Assembly: GCA_964583985.1 (NCBI GenBank)
Contig: CAZOYD010000065.1
Coordinates: 1-18,169, forward strand
Source: an uncultured archaeon
GTDB taxonomy: Archaea; Asgardarchaeota; Lokiarchaeia; Sigyniarchaeales; SOKP01
Reading direction: 5' to 3'
Length of the DNA stretch: 18,169 nt
In this document: one piece after another, positions 1,509-11,796 of the stretch
Numbering within the stretch: position 1 is the stretch's first letter
Layout: each line of letters begins with the position of its first letter
Notes under the pieces: model-generated
Databases searched by the model: none
The model's input: the letters and a program-made list of their open reading frames with translations, nothing else
Told to the model about the DNA's origin: nothing
Translations under genes and position numbers: made by a program

Positions 1509-2603
1509 ATGAAGATTAAAGATCTGAAGCCCAATTCAAATGTAAGCGTTCGAGTTCGGGTTTGTTCAAAAGGAACTGAAAGAACCGTCGCAAAAAATCG
1601 CTATAATCCCTTAAGAGTCTGTGAGTTTAAAGTAGGAGATGATAGTGGAGTTGTGGTATTAATAATGTTCAATGATGCTATTGATAAGTTAACTCGTGTT
1701 ATGGGGAGTGTGATTGATATTCAAGATGGGTGGTCAAAAAAATGGCAAGGTAAAATGCAACTTTCGATGGGGAAAGGTGGATCGTGGGATGTTGTCAATG
1801 ATAAAAACTTTCCGACGTCACAAGCAATTCTTCAAGGAAATGGAAGCGCGTCAGCATCAATCAAAAAGGCGATACCATCTGTAGGCACAAAAATAAAAGA
1901 TTTAAAACCAGATTCGAATGCGAATCTTAAATTAAGAATCTGTGCGAAAGCAGAAGAGAGAGTCCTTTCAAAGAACCGGACCGTACCTTTACGTGTATGT
2001 AATTTCACGGTAGGTGATGATTCCGGACATGTTAATTTAACCTTGTTTAATGATGAGATTGACAGGTTTTCTTCTCTTATGGGACAGGTTGTTGAGTTAA
2101 GAGATGGATGGGCTAAAATGTGGCAAGGAGACCTTCAATTATCGATGGGTAGATCGGGGTCTTTGGAAATAATTAACGACAAGAACTTTCCATCTATCAA
2201 TCAAATCTTACCTAGTATTCCCAATCAAACCGTGAAACTTGATTCCAGTACTCTTCAAGCTGATATTTTAGATTTTGGCACTAACACTCCATCCTTAGTG
2301 AAAGTTTCCGAGATCATCCCAAACATGAATATTTCTACCAAGGTAAGGGTATGCGAGCAAAGTGCCATAAAATACGTGAATCAGCGTGATGGGTCCAAGT
2401 TACGGGTTCGAGATTTTTTGATTGGCGACGAAACGGGATTAATTCCGTTTACGGCTTTTAATGGAGAAATCAAAGAAATAGGGGCTTTTACGGGGAACGT
2501 GATAAATTTAGAAAATTGTTGGGCGAAATTCTGGAATAAAACTCTTCAAGTCTCGAAGGGACAAAATGGAAGTTGGAAACTTGCTGACGATAGAGGATTT
2601 CCC
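1509..2603 (+). repeat. Intragenic triplication of the OB-fold unit (approx. 1509-1814, 1887-2192, 2298-2603)
   Basis: Units 1 and 2 are closest (KIKDLKPNSN/KIKDLKPDSN, PLRVC, VGDDSG, QLSMG, NDKNFP). Unit 3 is more diverged (IGDETG, LQVSKG, DDRGFP). Confidence 0.85.
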
Positions 2604-3047
2604 ACCAAAGAGGAACTTTTAGATAATTATAAAAAGTTGCAACTTGAGACACTCTCCGAATTATCCCATGGTATGGTTTATTATTCATCGATCAAAGGCA
2701 TACGGTTCCAAGAACATGGAAAAACGATTTATAAACAAGATGCCATGACTGAGTTGGAATTAATACCCGAGCCAGAAAATCCATATGATAATAAAGCGGT
2801 TGGAGTATGGTTAGACGGTAAGCAAATGGGGTATATCCCACGAACGCAAAACAAGGCAATTTTTAAGGCTTTAGAGGATGATGATCCTCAAATAAAATGC
2901 ATACTCGGCATTTTCAAGCCCGCTCTTAACACGGGGTATAATTTGCCACATCATGTAAAAGACATGCCGATAACGATTTCGACACATGTTCAAGTAATTG
3001 ATTGGCGTCCTGTTATATTATTGCCTGAAGATGCAATGGCATTTTAA
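1509..3047 (+). CDS. ssDNA-binding protein: three tandem SSB-type OB folds + HIRAN domain + conserved WRP..PED..AF C-terminal tail
   Basis: Three ~100-aa repeats (KIKDLKP...VGDDSG...F...GW...WQG..QLS.G...FP) resemble Sulfolobus SSB/hSSB1 OB folds. From aa ~389, IKGIRF...LELIPEPENPYDNKAVGVWLDGKQMGYIPR is the HIRAN signature (EPxNxYDxxAV...GYxPR). Confidence 0.85.
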   Translation: MKIKDLKPNSNVSVRVRVCSKGTERTVAKNRYNPLRVCEFKVGDDSGVVVLIMFNDAIDKLTRVMGSVIDIQDGWSKKWQGKMQLSMGKGGSWDVVNDKNFPTSQAILQGNGSASASIKKAIPSVGTKIKDLKPDSNANLKLRICAKAEERVLSKNRTVPLRVCNFTVGDDSGHVNLTLFNDEIDRFSSLMGQVVELRDGWAKMWQGDLQLSMGRSGSLEIINDKNFPSINQILPSIPNQTVKLDSSTLQADILDFGTNTPSLVKVSEIIPNMNISTKVRVCEQSAIKYVNQRDGSKLRVRDFLIGDETGLIPFTAFNGEIKEIGAFTGNVINLENCWAKFWNKTLQVSKGQNGSWKLADDRGFPTKEELLDNYKKLQLETLSELSHGMVYYSSIKGIRFQEHGKTIYKQDAMTELELIPEPENPYDNKAVGVWLDGKQMGYIPRTQNKAIFKALEDDDPQIKCILGIFKPALNTGYNLPHHVKDMPITISTHVQVIDWRPVILLPEDAMAF

Positions 3048-3056
3048 TTCTCTTTT

Positions 3057-4454
3057 TTATAACATAAGCTTTGCGATTATTTCAGGAAGATTATTTGGTG
3101 TAGATGCGAGTACATCAATTCCCAAAGTATTCATGAATTTAGCGTAGTTCCGATCAAACATTGGTTCATTATTATAATCCAATGCGGCTACTCCAAGTAT
3201 TTTTGTTTGACCTTCTAATACTTTCTTGAGCGTGTCAGTTAATCGGTCATATCCGCCTCCTTCATAAAAATCACTTATAATTACCATAATAGTCTTTTTA
3301 GGATTTTTAATTAATGATTGAGCATATTGTACAGCCCTCGCAATGTTAGTTCCACCTCCTAATTGAACGGTCATTAAAACCTCCACAGGATCGTCAATCT
3401 TATCGGAAAGATCGACAACTTGAGTATCAAAAATTATTAGATTTGTATGAACTGCGGGAAGGGTTGCAAAAATCGATGCAATCACCACGGAGAAAATTAT
3501 TGAATTCGTCATAGAACCACTTTCATCTATTAAAATTACTATTTGCCATGGTTTCTTCTTCTTTTCGGCACAATAAAACCGAGGTTCTGCCATGATTATT
3601 TTTTTTAGAGTAGGATCATAATGTTTTAAATTTCGACGAATGCTATCCTTCCAGTCAATATTTCGAAAAACCTTGATGGGGGTGTGCATATCGCGTTTGA
3701 TTGCCCCAATGATGTGCTTTTCAACATCATCTTTAAATTTATCCTTTAAATTTTCAACCACTTTTCTAACAACATTACGTGCAATATCCTTGACATCATT
3801 TGGAAGCATATTCTTTAAACTAATAATTGTTTTAACCATCTCTAAACTTGGTTCTACCTTTTCAAACAATTCAGGATTAGCTATAATATCTCTTATATCT
3901 GATCGTTCGATCAGATCTTTTTCTAATACTTCTTTCGTATCAGTTGGGAATAATTCCTTTACATTTTCGATCCAATCTGGAATTGAGAGATTGCTTGGAC
4001 CTAAACCAGCAGTTCTTCTCTGGTCTTGTGTCCCTCCATATACTAAGTCTAATGTCTCATCCATTTTTTTTAATTTATCTTTGTCAAATCCTTCTTGTCG
4101 AACTCCACTCGATTTCCCACTCGTACCCTTACCTCTAACACTATTCCCTTTTCCTGCGACTTTACTCTTTCCGGTGCCAGTACCTTTGCTACTCTTACCT
4201 TTTCCTGCTTTATCATCCTTATTCTCCTCACCCTCTCCTTTGCTCTCGCCTTCATCCTCGCTTTTCTCTTGATCTTCTCCCTCACCCTCTCCTTCATCTT
4301 GATTATCCTGATCATGTGATGCGTCATCTGAAAAATTTATATCCTGCTCTTCTGCTTTTTTACCTAAAATCAATCTCCACCTATCCATTGCTTCTCTTTG
4401 ATCTTCCGGTAATCTTGTGAACTTATCTTCATCAAAAATTTGGTTAGGACCCAT
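3057..4454 (-). CDS. VWA (CoxE/YehP-like) domain protein
   Basis: N-terminal RWRLILG motif, IDWKDSIRRNL, MIDAS DESGSM, QLGGGTNIARA and ISDFYEGG. Last gene of a MoxR operon. Confidence 0.9.
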   Translation of the reverse strand: MGPNQIFDEDKFTRLPEDQREAMDRWRLILGKKAEEQDINFSDDASHDQDNQDEGEGEGEDQEKSEDEGESKGEGEENKDDKAGKGKSSKGTGTGKSKVAGKGNSVRGKGTSGKSSGVRQEGFDKDKLKKMDETLDLVYGGTQDQRRTAGLGPSNLSIPDWIENVKELFPTDTKEVLEKDLIERSDIRDIIANPELFEKVEPSLEMVKTIISLKNMLPNDVKDIARNVVRKVVENLKDKFKDDVEKHIIGAIKRDMHTPIKVFRNIDWKDSIRRNLKHYDPTLKKIIMAEPRFYCAEKKKKPWQIVILIDESGSMTNSIIFSVVIASIFATLPAVHTNLIIFDTQVVDLSDKIDDPVEVLMTVQLGGGTNIARAVQYAQSLIKNPKKTIMVIISDFYEGGGYDRLTDTLKKVLEGQTKILGVAALDYNNEPMFDRNYAKFMNTLGIDVLASTPNNLPEIIAKLML

Positions 4455-4459
4455 TCAAT

Positions 4460-6943
4460 TCACACCTTTCCAAACCATTCTTCAAATATTTTGCGTAATT
4501 TATCGTCTACATTCTTAAAGAAGGTTTTAATGTCTTTTTCAATAAATTCTTTTAATTCTACATGTTTTTTTTTAATAAGACCATAATGCTCTGCAAGTTT
4601 TTCCACGAATATTTCATACTGTGTCGGGTGAAGTTCAGAAAAACTTTTTCTCATGGCAGGTAATATAGCAGAGAAAACATCCCAACTTACAGTTCCAACA
4701 ACTTCAGCCAATAACTTCACAATTTCTTGATTGATTAGTATTTTTATTTGACAAACATAAATGAGACCATAAATCAATGTACCAATTTTTACTCGGATTG
4801 AATCTATGCTATTCAGATATTCATAAATAATAATTTCGATATCAGAAACACTCAAATAATTCAATAAATATAGAATTCCGATGGAACCTCCCTTGATAAA
4901 TTCATTACTAGTATTTTCAATACAAGTGTTCATGCTTTCAATGTATACATTCAAATCGAGATCGATATTTTGTATCGAAATTAAAGTATTACCTAGCATT
5001 TTCATCGCATCAATATATTTTACCTCATCTGCTTCTGGAGGATTTGCGAAATTGGGTATAGAAAAACAACAAGTATAGTAAGTTCTCTGAATTAATTTTT
5101 CCATGAGTGCCAAATTTGACTTCTGGCTTTCCATCATTGACATGAACTGGAAAATCATGATCAAATTAAAAAATCCTTCTGTTAAGCTCAAAAATTCATT
5201 ATCTTCTTCAAGAGAGTTTAAACATTCATCAAATAGATCTTGAAAATGATCACTATACCCCATTGAGAGACTCTGAAACAATATATTCGTGATAAGGCTA
5301 AAATGTTTAACATTTTTTTTAGTTTCTTCAACCAGCTTGTTCTTACTTGCTTCCTCCAAGGTTGAGCCATAAGTACTCAATTCAACTAATTGCACGTCAA
5401 TATTTGGATTCCACCTTAATCTCCATTTTTCAGTGAATGTCCCAGTAATTCCATTCAAGACATCTGGACCTCGCAAGCGTTCAACGTAATTTATCCCCAA
5501 GAATTTAATTTTCCAAAACAATTGAGAAATCTTGGATTCTGCGTCCTCACGTAAGTTTAGATTTTTAGTCTGGTTTTTATCCTCGGGCTTTATACCGTTG
5601 GTTTCTAGTTGAAGATAAAAATCTCTTTGAAGTGGTAATTTGCCAATATCAGGAGTTACTTTCCCTATTTTGTAACCAATGGTTTTGTTTTGGATTAAGG
5701 ATTCTAAATATTTTCCTTCTATTTCTGGATTTCCCTTAATGAGCACCATGTAGATTGAATCAACGATATCTTTGAGATCTGGTTCTTCTCGTCGCCGTAA
5801 CATTGCAAGCATCTTGGCTCCTTGAAAAGAGTTTATGGAATCAGAAACTGAGACGATGATGCTTTTTTCTCTAGCTTCTTTGAAAATGTCGGTAATAAAG
5901 TCTAATGCAACAGCTTCATACGGATGATCTTGTTTGGAAGAGAATTTTCGCCAGACCATGTCGTAAAATTGAGGAGATTTATTTCCTGATAAATACCCTG
6001 AGTTTTGACTAATTCGATAATAAGAGAAAGGAATTAATGAGTTAATTAAGTTTTTTGTTGGAAAGTTAAAATTCTGGGATTCGCTATCTATTAATGCAAT
6101 AGAATGTATACCCCCGGTTATCACCAGCACGTCTTTTTCCTTGACTTTATATTTTTTTATGTAATTCTCAATATTATATTTCATGTACGATTCTCTTGCG
6201 AATGTACCATTTGCCTCAAGTAATTTATCATCAATTGTTTGTCGAAGGTAAGCACAAAAAAGTAACATGCTTTCTCTTAATTGATCGATATCAGATTTAT
6301 TAGCACCAATTTCAAATAGAGTCTCCCATGCTTCATTAAAATCTTCAAAATCAAAAACTTGAGCAAATTTATTATAAAAACCACTTAATGAATAAAACTT
6401 TTCTCCTTGCAACTGAAAAAGTTCCGGATCTTTAGTTGGATCCTTCAAATTTGCAGATTTATACGAAATCAACCCCGTAAGAGGTAGATCTATAAAGTGA
6501 ATAGGAATCTTTCTTTTTATAGATTCAGAAAGCGCAACAAACTCAGGAGAATATGAAACGAATGGATAATATGCTTCAAATTTAGCTGGTATTGAACTGT
6601 CGGGACTAAAAATTCCATTTAAACCAAAAGTATTATTTAGATCCGCATAAAGTGAGAGAATTGCAACTGGAGGGATAGTCTTCTTGTCAATCAAGTATTT
6701 TATTAAGTCATCCGCTAAAACTGGACCTTCTACCAAAATTAATTTTGGTTCGTATTTCTCAATCCATTTTTGAACTAAAATGGTAGAGCCTGGTGAGTGA
6801 TGACGAATTGGCAAATATTTAACTTTAGAATTCTTTACACGTGAAACCTTGGAATCAATTATTGAATTGTCAATACCCATTGATGTTCCTATCTCAAAAA
6901 GTATCTTTTTGAGGTTAGCAGCGTTTAAATAAGTATCACTCAT
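4460..6943 (-). CDS. DUF5682 family (YehM-like) protein
   Basis: PIRHHSPG, ILVEGP, YSPE, FIDLP, RESYM, VITGGIH, LIPFSYYRISQNSGYLSG, LVELSTYGSTLEEA and LPAMRKSFS motifs. It lies between the MoxR ATPase and the VWA gene, as in yehL-yehM-yehP. Confidence 0.85.
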   Translation of the reverse strand: MSDTYLNAANLKKILFEIGTSMGIDNSIIDSKVSRVKNSKVKYLPIRHHSPGSTILVQKWIEKYEPKLILVEGPVLADDLIKYLIDKKTIPPVAILSLYADLNNTFGLNGIFSPDSSIPAKFEAYYPFVSYSPEFVALSESIKRKIPIHFIDLPLTGLISYKSANLKDPTKDPELFQLQGEKFYSLSGFYNKFAQVFDFEDFNEAWETLFEIGANKSDIDQLRESMLLFCAYLRQTIDDKLLEANGTFARESYMKYNIENYIKKYKVKEKDVLVITGGIHSIALIDSESQNFNFPTKNLINSLIPFSYYRISQNSGYLSGNKSPQFYDMVWRKFSSKQDHPYEAVALDFITDIFKEAREKSIIVSVSDSINSFQGAKMLAMLRRREEPDLKDIVDSIYMVLIKGNPEIEGKYLESLIQNKTIGYKIGKVTPDIGKLPLQRDFYLQLETNGIKPEDKNQTKNLNLREDAESKISQLFWKIKFLGINYVERLRGPDVLNGITGTFTEKWRLRWNPNIDVQLVELSTYGSTLEEASKNKLVEETKKNVKHFSLITNILFQSLSMGYSDHFQDLFDECLNSLEEDNEFLSLTEGFFNLIMIFQFMSMMESQKSNLALMEKLIQRTYYTCCFSIPNFANPPEADEVKYIDAMKMLGNTLISIQNIDLDLNVYIESMNTCIENTSNEFIKGGSIGILYLLNYLSVSDIEIIIYEYLNSIDSIRVKIGTLIYGLIYVCQIKILINQEIVKLLAEVVGTVSWDVFSAILPAMRKSFSELHPTQYEIFVEKLAEHYGLIKKKHVELKEFIEKDIKTFFKNVDDKLRKIFEEWFGKV

Positions 6944-6949
6944 GGGAGT

Positions 6950-8227
6950 TTATCTAACTTGATTTTTAAAGGTATCAGCAAACTCTCTCCATGAAGAAGA
7001 GTTGTTTGCCCTTACTCTCGCGACCATATTGAAATATTCTCTTAATTTCGAAAGATTTTCTTTATCATCTTTGACGACTGCATCTATTATATTCATGGCA
7101 ATATGCTTGGGTTCAATCTCTGATTTGCCAAAGAATTTTGCATATATTGCACTATCAAGGAGTAATGAAATCTCTTCCGAAGTCGACATTACCGTTGAAA
7201 TGGGGGTAAATCGACCTCCACTCGTACTACGACCAGTTCTTAATTCTTGAAACACTGTAATCAATAAATCTAACGTATCTTCGGGAATCTGAATTTTAAA
7301 TCCTATCTTTTTTAGCAATGCATCGGTTCGCTGTGTCACGATTTTGCGTTCTAGATCTTTATCTTGAATAACCGGAATGTAGATAAAGTTGAAACGACGT
7401 TTTAATGCAGCGCTCATCTCGTTTACACCTCGATCTCTATCGTTAGCACTTGCGATTACATTGAATCCTGGAATTCCAAATACCATGTGTTCGGAACCTA
7501 ATTCAGGAAGTGGGACGACTTTTTCAGATAAAATAGATATCATACTATCCTGAATTTCTTGCGGACATCGCGTCAATTCTTCAAATCGTAAAATTTTACC
7601 TTCTCTCATTGCATTTATGGTAGGAGAGGGTACTAATGCTTCTTGACTAGGCCCATCTGAAACGAGTAATGCATAATTCCACGAATATCTAATTTGATCC
7701 TCGGTAGTTCCTGCAGTTCCTTGAATCAGATAGGTACTTTTACCACAAATTGCGGCGGCAAGGTGTTCTGAAAGCCACGATTTCGCTGTTCCAGGCTCTC
7801 CAATTAACATGAGCGCTCTTTCACTGGCTAAAGTAACAATAGATTTTTGAATCAGATCCCGTTGCCCATAGAATTTCGTGGAAATTTTAATTTTTTTCTC
7901 AGATCCATTTACTTTTAGGTTAAATTCCTCATCCGAACCAGTAATAAACAATTCAACCATCTTGGGGGATAATGTCCAATTAGGTGGTTTTGGATAGGTA
8001 TCATTTTGAGCTAAAGCCATTAATTCTTCAACATGCAATTCTTCAACAGGAAAGCGAATCTTTTCGATTTGTTTGCTACTGAGTTTTTGATCAGATCCAA
8101 GATCAATCTTATTAATTTTTGGTAGTGTCGCCTTTTGTACCGCAGGAGCTTTAGGTTTAGTTACTGGTGACTTTGCGGTAGTAGCTTTAGATGCAGGTAA
8201 TTTCTGTGGAGCTTTTTTTTTTGCCAT
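6950..8227 (-). CDS. MoxR-family AAA+ ATPase, YehL-like subfamily
   Basis: Walker A GEPGTAKS, IQGTAGTTEDQIRYSWNYA, Walker B LRFEELTR, and ANDRDRGVNEMSAALKRRF (sensor 1/Arg finger). Confidence 0.93.
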   Translation of the reverse strand: MAKKKAPQKLPASKATTAKSPVTKPKAPAVQKATLPKINKIDLGSDQKLSSKQIEKIRFPVEELHVEELMALAQNDTYPKPPNWTLSPKMVELFITGSDEEFNLKVNGSEKKIKISTKFYGQRDLIQKSIVTLASERALMLIGEPGTAKSWLSEHLAAAICGKSTYLIQGTAGTTEDQIRYSWNYALLVSDGPSQEALVPSPTINAMREGKILRFEELTRCPQEIQDSMISILSEKVVPLPELGSEHMVFGIPGFNVIASANDRDRGVNEMSAALKRRFNFIYIPVIQDKDLERKIVTQRTDALLKKIGFKIQIPEDTLDLLITVFQELRTGRSTSGGRFTPISTVMSTSEEISLLLDSAIYAKFFGKSEIEPKHIAMNIIDAVVKDDKENLSKLREYFNMVARVRANNSSSWREFADTFKNQVR

Positions 8228-8254
8228 AATCGACCCTTTTTTTAAATTTTAATT

Positions 8255-9397
8255 TTATTTGACTTTATATACTGATTTTAATAATTCTCTATTACTTACA
8301 GCACTTTTTGATAAATTTGGATATGAAAATTGATTATCAGAAACAATACCAAGAGGATATAAATTAAGTTGCCCATTTTCTAGGATAAGTTTACAAAATA
8401 TCCCCTCAATTGGTTTCTTCCTACCCTTGTAATTTTTAAATTCTTCAATTAATTTTAAATTCCCTTTCTTTTCAGGTATTCTTATAATCAAGGGATAATC
8501 TTCCTTATGAGTAAGTTCAAAAACAATCATTGGAGTGATGTCTCCTTCTTGACCTTCTTTATGAAACTCAATGATATTTACCTCTTTTACGTATAAATAA
8601 TCAATAAAACTTGCAGGTAAGTCAAAAGGGGTTATTTCATGATCTTTGACAATTTTCTGATATATTTCTTTGGAATTATAATAAAATTTATCTAATTTTG
8701 AGATGGAAACATGGGTATCTTCTGAAGATTCTTCGTCAATATATATTTTTGATTCGGGATTTTTTTCTAAGAAGATAAGGTCATCTTTTTCATTACATGG
8801 AATTTGATCGCCTTCAATATATTTTAAAAGTATTGACGAAACCGGACATGTAGGAACTGAATTAGGTAGATCAAGGTGTAGTAAAGCCTCTGCAGTCACT
8901 CCTGATTTGTATGGAAGCATTAAATGCCATTTCAATATTTTTCCTCTTGTCTTTCCAAACAATGAAAGGAAATAAAACACAAATCCAACGATCGATCCTT
9001 CTAAATGTATTTTTTCTGTTCCAACCACTTTGAGAATTAGTTTGCTTTTTATCTCTGCCTCTAATGGTGTACCCATTAATCTATCAAATATGATAGGTTT
9101 TTCATCCATCAAGCCTTCCTGTAAAGAAAAAGCTCGGCTTAAAAGCCAACAGTTACTAAGAAAGAACACATACCGTTCAATATTGAATGCATCACGATTT
9201 TCAAGAAATCTTTTTAACTCTATATGTAAGTACCTTAAAGATGCAGCCAATCGATAGGCTTTTAATTGGGAGGTGCTCTGCAAAAAAAACTCTATGTTTT
9301 TAATATTCTCTTTCGAGACAAAATTCAATCCACTATATGCTAAACTTTCAATATAATCCTTTACTTGGACAGCAACATTTCCTAATTGAAGACTCAA
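8255..9397 (-). CDS. Uncharacterised protein in the MoxR operon (N-terminal helical bundle, beta-rich C-terminal part)
   Basis: 380-aa ORF with TTG start, preceded by a GAGGAG Shine-Dalgarno-like site at the end of the upstream gene (4-nt gap). No family recognised with certainty. Confidence 0.8.
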   Translation of the reverse strand: MSLQLGNVAVQVKDYIESLAYSGLNFVSKENIKNIEFFLQSTSQLKAYRLAASLRYLHIELKRFLENRDAFNIERYVFFLSNCWLLSRAFSLQEGLMDEKPIIFDRLMGTPLEAEIKSKLILKVVGTEKIHLEGSIVGFVFYFLSLFGKTRGKILKWHLMLPYKSGVTAEALLHLDLPNSVPTCPVSSILLKYIEGDQIPCNEKDDLIFLEKNPESKIYIDEESSEDTHVSISKLDKFYYNSKEIYQKIVKDHEITPFDLPASFIDYLYVKEVNIIEFHKEGQEGDITPMIVFELTHKEDYPLIIRIPEKKGNLKLIEEFKNYKGRKKPIEGIFCKLILENGQLNLYPLGIVSDNQFSYPNLSKSAVSNRELLKSVYKVK

Positions 9398-9401
9398 TTA
9401 T

Positions 9402-9743
9402 TTACTCCTCTTCTTTTAAAGTATTTTTAACACTCTCTACTGTCATGATCTTCTCAAGCATTCTGGTTACTGCTATTATACGTAAAATCTCGATCGATAT
9501 CTCTTTTTTTAAATTGATAGGAATAGGTTTATGAGTCAAATTTTGTATTTTTTCTAAAAATGATTCTAAAAGCTCACTCAGTGTCGTAAAATTCATCTCC
9601 TTTAGCCTGTCTTTTAAATCCACGAGATCGGAGCTGTTTTCGTAACTTACACTGTCTATTCCTTTGATTATAATTTCATTTAACTTGATTTTAATAATAT
9701 CCAGAATATGGAAGCTTTCTCTTATTTGTTCATCTTGTGCCAC
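9402..9743 (-). CDS. Small helical protein in the MoxR operon
   Basis: 113-aa ORF with GTG start, tightly packed in the operon. Amphipathic helical pattern with a GIDSVSYEN motif. Confidence 0.75.
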   Translation of the reverse strand: MAQDEQIRESFHILDIIKIKLNEIIIKGIDSVSYENSSDLVDLKDRLKEMNFTTLSELLESFLEKIQNLTHKPIPINLKKEISIEILRIIAVTRMLEKIMTVESVKNTLKEEE

Positions 9744-9762
9744 TTTTCTCTACCCATCTTGA

Positions 9763-10257
9763 TTAAAAAGCAAAAAAATCCTCTGGTAATATTTCAACGG
9801 GGCGCCATTCAATCACGCCTTCTAAAGCATTTTGATATTTTAAAAAAATCCCTGTAGCTTCGTTTTTATCGAAATATGGCTTATTTAGCTTTGTTTTATC
9901 CACCCATTTTATCATTTCATCAATTGTTCCTTGATTTGTCTTTATGACCGCAATCAACGCCAATATAATATGCTTGCAAATTTTCCCCCTAAGACCACCG
10001 CAAGGATGAAGATTTTGAGTACCGCAAAAAAAATTCCCCTTGGATGAAAGTTTTACGGCATATTCTAAACTTTCTGGATGGGTCTGTGATTTAATAACTG
10101 CTTTAAACGATTCAGCATTTTTGTCAATATAAAGGAGATTTATTTCTTTTTTGTACATATTTATAGCTTTATCAATCCGAGGAGGAATCGTATCATCTTT
10201 TATTGATGAATTGAGCTGTTTTACAAATTTTAAGATACTATTATCTGTTATACTCAT
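9763..10257 (-). CDS. SWIM-like zinc-finger protein with WRP..PED..AF C-terminal tail; first gene of the operon
   Basis: AVIKSQT....EYAVKL....FFCGTQNLHPCGGLRGKICKHIILAL contains the SWIM-type CxH followed by a hydrophobic helix. Ligand spacing is C-x7-C-x7-C-x-H. Confidence 0.8.
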   Translation of the reverse strand: MSITDNSILKFVKQLNSSIKDDTIPPRIDKAINMYKKEINLLYIDKNAESFKAVIKSQTHPESLEYAVKLSSKGNFFCGTQNLHPCGGLRGKICKHIILALIAVIKTNQGTIDEMIKWVDKTKLNKPYFDKNEATGIFLKYQNALEGVIEWRPVEILPEDFFAF

Positions 10258-10406: not shown

Positions 10407-11030
10407 ATGAATAAAACTCAACTTCCTACTACTTGTCCGAATTGTGGGAAACCACTTCGTGAGCGAAAGGGGAAATATGGACCGTTTTTAGGTTGTATGG
10501 GTTATCCGGAGTGTAACTTTACATTTGATCTATCAGAACAATCAAGGATCACATGTCCAATATGCGATAAAAAGTTAAAAATACGCCTTGGAAGAATTAA
10601 CAAGTACTTAAGTTGTAGCGGTTATCCCGAATGTACATTTAATTATTTCCCAGATAGCGAGGAACAAGAATTCGTCCTCTCTTGTCCCGATTGTAAAAAT
10701 GATCTTTTTACAGATAAACACCGAAATTTACAAATTTTATGTAAAGGATGTAAATTTACGTTGAGCATGAACCGAGATGATATGATTCTCTGTCCAAATT
10801 GTAATAAACCATTAACGGTTAGAACGGGAACATATGGAAGATTTCTTGGATGTACGGGGTATCCCGACTGCCGATTTGCTAGCAATCTAGAACGTTCCTA
10901 TACAGGGAAACAAAAAAAAGTGTACTGTTCAAAATGCGGAAGTGCATTGGAATTAATATCTGCAAGTTCTGGAGATTTTCTTCGATGTACATCACATCCA
11001 AAATGTGATTTCACTTATATTCTTGAATAA
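10407..11030 (+). CDS. Stand-alone topoisomerase I-type C4 zinc-ribbon repeat protein (YrdD-like)
   Basis: Repeats CPNCGKPL..RKGKYGPFLGCMGYPEC, CPICDKKL...GRINKYLSCSGYPEC, a shortened CPDC...CKGC, CPNC...GTYGRFLGCTGYPDC and CSKC...GDFLRCTSHPKC. No catalytic domain. Confidence 0.9.
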   Translation: MNKTQLPTTCPNCGKPLRERKGKYGPFLGCMGYPECNFTFDLSEQSRITCPICDKKLKIRLGRINKYLSCSGYPECTFNYFPDSEEQEFVLSCPDCKNDLFTDKHRNLQILCKGCKFTLSMNRDDMILCPNCNKPLTVRTGTYGRFLGCTGYPDCRFASNLERSYTGKQKKVYCSKCGSALELISASSGDFLRCTSHPKCDFTYILE

Positions 11031-11163: not shown

Positions 11164-11796
11164 TTACATTTTTGATTCTTCTACCACTTTGATCGCATCG
11201 GCCTTTACTTTTACTGTTGCTACGGAATCAAGGATTTTTTTATGCCAAATAGTTTGAATATCTACCATATTTTTTAGAAGAACTTGCATTTTTTCTAATT
11301 TAACTTTATTAAAGTCCTCAGTTGCTACTTTTACAACGTTTTGTTCTTTGGCAGCGTTGTCTTTCGCAGTTTTTAATGCTGTTTCAGCCGTTTCTATTTC
11401 GTTTGGCTTTAATTTTTCTTTTGGTTTGCTTTGGATTTTAGTTAGATGCTTTTCAGCTTTTTCTAATTCTTTTGTAGCCTTTTCAGCTTCATTTTGTTCA
11501 GTTTGGAGTTTTTGTAGACCAATTAAAAGATCATTTAGTGGTGCAATGTATTCTTCTCGGAGTCTCTTGATTTTCTCCGCGCTTTCTTTTTCAATCATTT
11601 CAAATGTCGAAGCTAATGAATTTATTGCTTGTCCTAAAGAAGGAGTCTCTGTTTCAGCATAAGCTTTTAACGCATTGGAAGTCTTTTTAATTTCCCTTGT
11701 GACATTTTCCTCTGCATTAATATATTGATTACTTTCTTTAATCAACTCACTAATTTTATTGCTCGTAATTCCTAAAGCATTTGTCAAGTTATCCAT
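11164..11796 (-). CDS. BAR-domain-like all-helical protein (resembles FAM92/CIBAR-type BAR)
   Basis: 210 aa with three long amphipathic helices. AYAETETPSLGQAINSLA...RLREEYIAPL...FNKVKLEKMQVLLKNMVDIQTIWHKKILD recalls BAR-domain helix signatures. Confidence 0.65.
   Translation of the reverse strand: MDNLTNALGITSNKISELIKESNQYINAEENVTREIKKTSNALKAYAETETPSLGQAINSLASTFEMIEKESAEKIKRLREEYIAPLNDLLIGLQKLQTEQNEAEKATKELEKAEKHLTKIQSKPKEKLKPNEIETAETALKTAKDNAAKEQNVVKVATEDFNKVKLEKMQVLLKNMVDIQTIWHKKILDSVATVKVKADAIKVVEESKM

Follow-up and report, generated by a model that had tools for sequence, protein, structure and literature searches.

A C-terminal tail shared by unrelated, mostly DNA-related proteins and its link to YehL/YehM/YehP-type operons in Asgard archaea and bacteria

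The window analyzed here, a stretch of 18,169 nucleotides from an uncultured archaeon of the Lokiarchaeia (contig CAZOYD010000065.1 of assembly GCA_964583985.1; 3.8 Mb, 138 contigs, 31.7% GC), hosts a minus-strand operon encoding, in this order, a SWIM-type zinc-finger protein, p113, p380, a MoxR AAA_5 ATPase, a DUF5682 protein, and a VWA_CoxE protein. The element under study is a C-terminal peptide of 17 residues, hereafter the tail, which ends two of the proteins encoded at this locus. One is the SWIM-type subunit itself (164 aa; 9763-10257, -), the product of the first operon gene with a C..C..CxH signature invariant in alignment A1, which terminates in VIEWRPVEILPEDFFAF directly before the stop codon (9763-9816, -). 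The other is a 512-aa protein (1509-3047, +), whose gene is convergent with the operon at its VWA side and which is composed of three Ssb-like OB folds (Pfam Ssb-like_OB, 1.5e-18, in three stretches), a HIRAN domain (1.9e-08), and the tail, here VIDWRPVILLPEDAMAF followed by the stop codon (2994-3047, +). Its NCBIfam match is a single-stranded DNA-binding protein, and we regard this OB-HIRAN protein as a putative accessory, tail-bearing subunit. Within the operon, p113 (9402-9743, -) is a small helical protein with homologues at the same position in Asgard and bacterial loci, and p380 (8255-9397, -), likewise conserved in bacterial loci, is by its profile (A8) the predicted counterpart of the non-SWIM part of YehQ-like proteins. 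The MoxR-type AAA+ ATPase is YehL-like (6950-8227, -; Pfam AAA_5, 3.3e-37), its gene adjoins that of the YehM-like DUF5682 protein (4460-6943, -; PF18934, 7.9e-92), and the YehP-like VWA_CoxE protein (3057-4454, -; PF05762, 8.7e-43) has an intact metal ion-dependent adhesion site (MIDAS).

An earlier note, made from the letters of this DNA, had described the common ending of two proteins dissimilar elsewhere, and BLASTP reproduced both points: the ends align without gaps with 12 of 17 residues identical (E 8e-06), and the next-best segment between the two proteins reaches an E-value of only 4.9. Seven of the 12 identical residues use differing codons, exactly in the pairs listed earlier, at a nucleotide identity of 35/51. 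Among the 15,336 stop-to-stop open reading frames (ORFs) of at least 50 aa in the whole genome, the regular expression W[RK]P..P[ED][ED]..$ matched these two proteins only, and both tail copies of the genome thus sit in one locus. None of 200 shuffles contained a back-translated tail pattern of 30 nt, which the window holds in two places. When 24 tails were combined into a profile and compared with 1.84 billion representative proteins, 36 matches were obtained, 32 of them at the extreme C-terminus. A resemblance by chance is excluded by the genome-wide regular expression, the shuffles, and the profile search. The consensus of the tail reads approximately [ILV][ED]-W-R-P-x4-P-E-D-x-h-[AVS]-h-COOH, with h being hydrophobic. 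It does not correspond to the C-terminal tip of SSB, an acidic run ending in IPF, as the two tails read ...LPEDAMAF and ...LPEDFFAF with WRP upstream, and it ends non-SSB proteins as well as OB-type ones. The glutamine required by the archaeal PIP box, Qxx[LIM]xx[FYW][FYW], is present at its position in none of the 24 tails.

The differing codons had been taken as a sign of selection on protein level, which the orthologues bear out, since the tail is kept in every full-length SWIM and every OB-HIRAN orthologue. Full-length SWIM homologues (67 clusters, the named ones all Asgard) end without exception in [IL][ED]WRP[VI]E[ILVM][LYFM]PED[FL]x[AS][FLVW], and the tail represents the best-conserved stretch of alignment A1. 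Congruently, nine of nine OB-HIRAN homologues share the ending EWRPV[IVM][LI][LFY]PEDxM[AV]x, while their OB folds vary in number between one and three. Outside of the tail, the orthologues of both proteins fall to 42-60% identity. The tail thereby shows one hallmark of a linear motif, namely a short, conserved segment next to diverging flanks. A systematic difference between both groups was found at the residue following WRP[VI], which is always Glu in SWIM tails and hydrophobic or polar in accessory tails.

The second hallmark of linear motifs, the presence on unrelated domains, became apparent upon extension of the search to 399 Asgard genomes. Tail-coding genes were detected in 22 of them using the back-translated pattern, and in all 22 exactly four residues separate PED from the stop codon; the pattern matches of six further genomes (G049, G050, G331, G340, G381, and G394) do not correspond to tails and look like chance, and an extra pattern match was also present in G170, which is among the 22 tail genomes. 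The Asgard tail ends at least 10 unrelated types of cargo, comprising SWIM, OB-HIRAN, HIRAN alone (137-149 aa), UDG-superfamily, LRR, Cdc6_lid, and zinc-ribbon proteins as well as several families without a Pfam match. The profile search with the 24 tails added zinc-ribbon proteins of 720-790 aa and more OB proteins. The proteome search with tabulated cargo and gene neighbors, as suggested in the earlier note, hence revealed diverse cargo that is often encoded beside the operon. Throughout the data set this cargo is almost entirely DNA-related (OB, HIRAN, UDG, Cdc6_lid, BRCT, pentapeptide DNA mimics, and zinc ribbons).

Outside the Asgard archaea, a scan of metagenomes for the tail returned at least 118 stretches. 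Approximately 110 of the 118 listed are high-GC bacterial genes ending in [LIV][RKQ]YKGA[EQ]AGE[VI]DWRPTET[IVM]PED[YF]YA[LMFY]-stop, corresponding to a bacterial consensus of DWRPTETIPEDYYA[LFM]-COOH. The bacterial gene order, i.e., one or several tail genes followed by genes for a p113 homologue of ~105 aa, a p380-like protein, YehL, YehM, and YehP, identifies the same operon as in Asgard archaea. Small (165-206 aa) and large (380-945 aa) tail proteins are often encoded side by side, and in one locus (L127) a tail protein is located at each end of the operon, as it is in the window. The large bacterial tail proteins consist of BRCT, pentapeptide repeats, a C-terminal SWIM module, and the tail. 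All four elements are also united in each of three proteins of 793-840 aa that are encoded in tandem on one stretch (L155:1875-9300, -), where the 10 kb examined contain no operon gene. The small bacterial SWIM protein ends in the tail in 119 of the 120 homologues listed (825 clusters, the named ones belonging to the Myxococcota), and across the listed bacterial SWIM homologues most of the last 24 positions are 86-100% invariant. On non-SWIM proteins the tail is common in Lokiarchaeia, but rare in bacteria (L201, L213, and L165). Because the bacterial operons share the tail and nearly all listed SWIM homologues carry it, we take it to be the ancestral C-terminus of the SWIM subunit in this family of operons, bacterial as well as archaeal, and to have been copied secondarily onto non-SWIM proteins, mainly in Lokiarchaeia. 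A distant Asgard operon type (L110:12662-13141 and L111:15299-15769) is composed of AAA, a DUF5682 protein of ~900-980 aa, SWIM, a protein of ~440 aa, and VWA. Its small SWIM proteins end in E-x-[IF]-P-E-M-x-W-F, which aligns with E-x-L-P-E-D of the tail and suggests that an acidic-aromatic C-terminal end is older still than the tail.

The link between tail and operon is apparent from adjacency as well as from co-occurrence. A second tail gene directly adjoins the operon in the window, in the Asgard loci L094, L092, L082, L085, L095, L077, and L074, and in the bacterial locus L127. A strong DUF5682 match was obtained for 13 of the 22 tail genomes in comparison to six of the 377 other Asgard genomes. 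Five of these six carry a different operon type, in which AAA, DUF5682, and VWA genes are followed by a gene for a fused SWIM+p380 or a p380-like protein and a small SWIM gene is lacking, while in the sixth the contig ends right where the SWIM gene is expected. The number of tail genes per operon-bearing Asgard genome ranges from one to four, with a single one in G153 and G163, and in some operon genomes (G170, G280, and G144) unlinked tail genes are found. Within the genus of the window the system is present in three of 41 genomes. In one of these three (G240), an ORF of 186 aa (L093:10059-10619, -) matches both the SWIM (9e-39) and the VWA protein (3e-44), joining the N-terminus of the former to the C-terminus of the latter, and a HIRAN-tail gene adjoins. 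This chimeric ORF is the scar of a deletion by which everything from p113 through most of VWA was removed. With respect to the portable docking or substrate tag tied to the operon that the earlier note had proposed, portability (at least 10 cargo types) and the operon link (adjacency and co-occurrence) are thus retained. Rather than a free-standing tag, the element is best regarded as the ancestral end of the operon's SWIM subunit that was copied secondarily.

Based on these sequence comparisons, we consider it probable, at a moderate level of confidence, that the tail serves one family of YehL/YehM/YehP-type machines (MoxR AAA+, DUF5682, and VWA) as a portable docking peptide at the C-terminus, by which alternative DNA-binding subunits are recruited. 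We infer that it binds an operon product and that the machine would act on DNA-bound complexes. Originally, the tail would have terminated the small zinc-finger subunit of SWIM type, from which it would have been grafted in Lokiarchaeia onto other, mostly DNA-binding, proteins such as the triple-OB HIRAN protein of the window. The grafted proteins would then occupy the site of the SWIM tail on the machine, and tail proteins, either DNA-binding or DNA-mimicking, may replace or compete with one another as subunits for DNA sensing or targeting. The fixed position of the tail could also be that of a substrate tag or degron, with the MoxR ring and the VWA/MIDAS part gripping the C-terminus in order to pull the protein off DNA or to unfold it, comparable with the removal of Ytm1 and Rsa4 by Rea1/Mdn1 or with the handling of ssrA-tagged proteins by ClpX. 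A strictly C-terminal location with four residues after PED in all operon-linked archaeal and bacterial cases, the hydrophobic last residues, conserved acidic residues suiting the intact MIDAS site, and the several different tail proteins per genome would be in line with such a tag. We nevertheless rate it as unlikely, as the SWIM protein is constantly present in the operon, is the first to be translated, and shows the conservation of a subunit rather than of a client, and as the internal tail copies of giant proteins described below cannot thread from a free end.

Several observations weigh against docking to the operon machine. In bacteria, the tail nearly always occurs together with a whole SWIM module (94 of 124 ORFs) and is thus possibly just a part of it. 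DUF5682 was not found in nine of the 22 tail genomes, and five of these nine, being 95-99% complete, are also devoid of p113 and p380. Among the metagenome loci of at least 8 kb, 10 of 24 show no operon gene within the stretch examined. Furthermore, giant proteins carry non-terminal tail copies, including one in a genome without DUF5682. As a consequence of these internal copies and of the operon-less tail genomes, neither a free C-terminus nor the operon would be needed in every context. Two of the five genomes mentioned (G183 and G209) differ from the operon-bearing G179 by a synonymous divergence (dS) of 0.03-0.13, G240 carries the deletion scar described above, and bins of metagenome-assembled genomes can miss accessory islands, so that recent loss, incomplete binning, and true independence cannot be separated for the operon-less tail genomes. 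The ratio of nonsynonymous to synonymous divergence (dN/dS) of tail genes is 0.24-0.33 without the operon and 0.11-0.49 elsewhere, at a divergence too small for the detection of relaxed selection. Tail genes of genomes in which no operon is detectable, internal copies in a genome without DUF5682, and the DNA-related cargo would also be expected if the tail docked to a host factor outside of the operon, e.g., a DNA-replication or repair hub, with the operon link reflecting shared biology. This possibility appears remote to us, considering that the patchy distribution (22 of 399 Asgard genomes, three of 41 in the genus) tracks the operon instead of a universal factor, that the motif fits neither the PIP box nor the SSB tip, and that the operon adjacency recurs from Myxococcota-like bacteria to Asgard archaea.

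The giant proteins mentioned above are found in a viral and in poorly annotated contexts. A 104-kb IMG/VR contig encodes a 1695-aa ORF (L242:2844-7931) with two exact and one variant internal tail copies. P0093 (L117:10001-14440, 1479 aa) contains four internal copies of DWRPxExIPEDxYA and a PI3/PI4-kinase-like domain at its end, and P0094 (L118:10001-14524, 1507 aa) contains six. P0094 belongs to a genome of 60% GC that lacks DUF5682 and is surrounded there by small ORFs without annotation; P0093 likewise lies in a region of unannotated small ORFs, and a comparison of the neighbors of both with PHROGs gave no match. In addition, three IMG/VR contigs encode small proteins without an assigned family (91-148 aa) that end in the tail, and one of these contigs also has a phage primase. 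It is possible that mobile elements mimic the tail. A more far-reaching and rather doubtful interpretation would be that these small and giant proteins imitate the tail on behalf of viruses and occupy its receptor as decoys or sponges, jamming or hijacking the machine, which would in turn make it an antiviral or DNA-surveillance system with its sensor-docking site targeted by counter-defence.

Structure models were calculated with AlphaFold2 (AF2). The SWIM protein is predicted at a mean local confidence (predicted local distance difference test, pLDDT) of 86, with the tail at 75 falling to 59, and the HIRAN domain with its tail at a mean of 76, with the tail at 63 falling to 44. Hence, in both models the most conserved segment, the tail, is the least confidently placed one and follows a confident domain, and this low pLDDT fits a tail that orders only on binding. 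A search of the PDB with the SWIM model by Foldseek returned nothing at E ≤ 0.001. The moderate confidence of the first half of the tail in the SWIM model (pLDDT 75), together with its contiguity with the SWIM module in bacteria, could be read as an integral structural element of each protein. Such an element, or else a mere chance resemblance, is highly improbable in our view: the common 17-residue ending of more than 10 unrelated folds largely refutes the former, and the confidence drops along the tail in both models. Both models draw the tail as a three-residue strand plus a short helical turn. This strand, the identical element on core subunit and variable partners, and the two to six copies within giant proteins might point to a homotypic pairing, in which strand contacts between tails connect an accessory protein with the SWIM subunit, comparable with the effector-associated domains of other MoxR-vWA conflict systems. 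Pairing of this kind has little probability, given the single tail gene in the operon genomes G153 and G163 in comparison to three to four in others, the systematic difference of SWIM and accessory tails after WRP[VI], and the shortness of 17 residues for a specific homotypic contact.

For docking to an operon product, p113 and p380, which the earlier note had not named, should be included among the candidate receptors. Most likely, the helical p113/p380 modules would be the receptor, followed by the MIDAS site of the VWA protein and then by DUF5682 or the AAA ring. The two modules are ranked first because, from Myxococcota-like bacteria to Asgard archaea, a SWIM gene with the tail is invariably followed by the genes for both, because p113 is confined to operons with a separate tailed SWIM protein, and because other operon types join SWIM covalently to the p380-like part. 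The MIDAS site comes next in view of the invariant Glu-Asp of the tail and of its free carboxylate at a fixed position. Of its residues, D310, S312, and S314 (DxSxS) as well as D395 are invariant in alignments A6 and A9, and T369 is invariant in A6 (12 rows) and nearly so in A9 (18 rows). Co-folding of p113, p380, and VWA (residues 130-465) with the HIRAN+tail fragment, a set leaving out DUF5682, the AAA ring, and SWIM, resulted in ipSAE interface scores of 0.12 and 0.01 at a mark of 0.32.

Assignment of the operon proteins to known families remained partial. No Pfam or NCBIfam model covers the tail, p113, p380, or the SWIM proteins, and the tail is absent from the PADLOC models as well; in the Pfam search of the window SWIM protein the SWIM model stayed below threshold, and p113 matched no Pfam family. 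Of the two SWIM regions in E. coli YehQ, the second one is matched by the SWIM profile (A1; E 4e-05), and in type-a operons the A8 profile spans residues 155-501 and 168-517 of the SWIM+p380 fusion proteins. The p113 profile matches the N-termini of p380-like proteins and of operon proteins of 602 and 775 aa, and a paralogy of p113 to the N-terminal module of p380 is weakly suggested by hhalign (probability 20%, E 1e-3). In local phmmer searches the window AAA protein (~1e-115) and E. coli YehL (~1e-80) match identical ORFs of bacterial loci; the bpMoxR model of Pfam scored below its cut-off on the operon (22.8 vs 27 bits). None of the six operon proteins matched a PADLOC-DB model; only the HIRAN region was matched, by the candidate family PDC-M03B. 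Besides its VWA part, the VWA protein has a conserved N-terminal motif, DRWRLILGKKAE, within residues 1-130, followed by a long low-complexity linker of highly variable length, acidic and then Lys/Gly-rich, and by the conserved helical and VWA parts.

The same four families, namely YehL (MoxR ATPase), DUF5682, VWA, and SWIM, are encoded by yehL-yehM-yehP-yehQ of E. coli, the function of which is unknown. PF18934 was also detected in the E. coli control genome, and E. coli YehL, YehM, and YehP match operon proteins of bacterial tail-type loci. E. coli YehQ, a protein of 614 aa in which a p380-like region is joined to two SWIM fingers, is encoded last and lacks the WRP-PED tail, whereas the window operon departs from the L-M-P-Q order by a separate 164-aa SWIM protein encoded first, followed by p113 and p380, and by extra tail proteins. 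It is thus a variant of the YehLMP family rather than the E. coli form. A YehQ segment, EEWDPAIWLEEL, was evaluated as a relative of the tail and dismissed, its resemblance being too weak to use. In Deinococcus, the five genes of the ddrTUVWX operon start with a SWIM zinc-finger protein and end with a VWA CoxE-like protein, and in Deinococcus deserti irradiation raises their expression, under control of IrrE/DdrO, by a factor of more than five to ten (PMC5552922; PMC6300522). According to these published gene descriptions, on which the likeness rests, they resemble the window operon in having SWIM first and VWA last, and they probably belong to the YehL/M/P family of MoxR machines. Their radiation induction would be in line with a role of the machine related to DNA damage.

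Parallels to the tail exist in other systems. The MIDAS of Rea1/Mdn1 binds the UBL domains of Ytm1 and Rsa4 via a key acidic residue, so that here, too, one small element on two differing proteins is read by a dynein-like ATPase of the AAA_5 type that has a MIDAS module. The element read by Rea1/Mdn1 is, however, a folded domain of ~90 residues, and ATPase and MIDAS reside in one eukaryotic polypeptide, in contrast to a 17-residue peptide with VWA as only a candidate receptor. C-terminal docking tips are further known from the SSB tail (DDDIPF), the HbYX motif of proteasomal ATPases, and archaeal PIP boxes. In these, as proposed for the tail, a short conserved C-terminal peptide, often acidic with an aromatic or hydrophobic end, brings different proteins to one hub, but the tail differs by its consensus WRP-x4-PED-x4 and by its restriction to carriers of one accessory operon instead of a universal distribution. 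Kaur et al. (eLife 2020) reportedly described effector-associated domains in MoxR-vWA ternary conflict systems. Effector-associated domains of MoxR-vWA systems are also mentioned in PMC10910872. Like the tail, they represent a small module common to a core component and variable partners; unlike the tail, they are folded, comprise ~80-100 residues, and belong to VMAP systems, compared with DUF5682, p113, p380, and SWIM in the operon studied here.

Two neighboring genes of the window complete the description of the locus. Divergent from the SWIM gene, a gene at 10407-11030 (+) encodes a protein of four topoisomerase-I-type C4 zinc ribbons without the tail, and homologues recur in the vicinity of the operon at two further Asgard loci (L092:17829-18494 and L107:6879-8354, the latter directly after the VWA gene). 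The helical protein of 210 aa encoded at 11164-11796 (-) matches the eukaryotic FAM92 BAR-domain family (E 8.1e-06; 25.9 bits at a cut-off of 23.6) and more weakly BAR_3, thus representing a BAR-like protein in an Asgard genome.

Our literature searches retrieved no paper on DUF5682, no functional paper on yehLMPQ, and no description of the tail. YehL/M/P machines are widespread, from E. coli K-12 over many soil bacteria to Asgard archaea, without a known function or substrate, and the tail provides an experimental handle on them, as a peptide for pull-down and as a truncation mutant accessible in one step. If the proposed docking role is true, the tail would to our knowledge be the first known peptide tag assigning interchangeable adaptors to a MoxR-VWA system. 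Its presence on single-stranded-DNA-binding, 3'-end-binding, UDG-like, origin-protein-like, and DNA-mimicking proteins is a strong hint that these machines may work on DNA-bound complexes.

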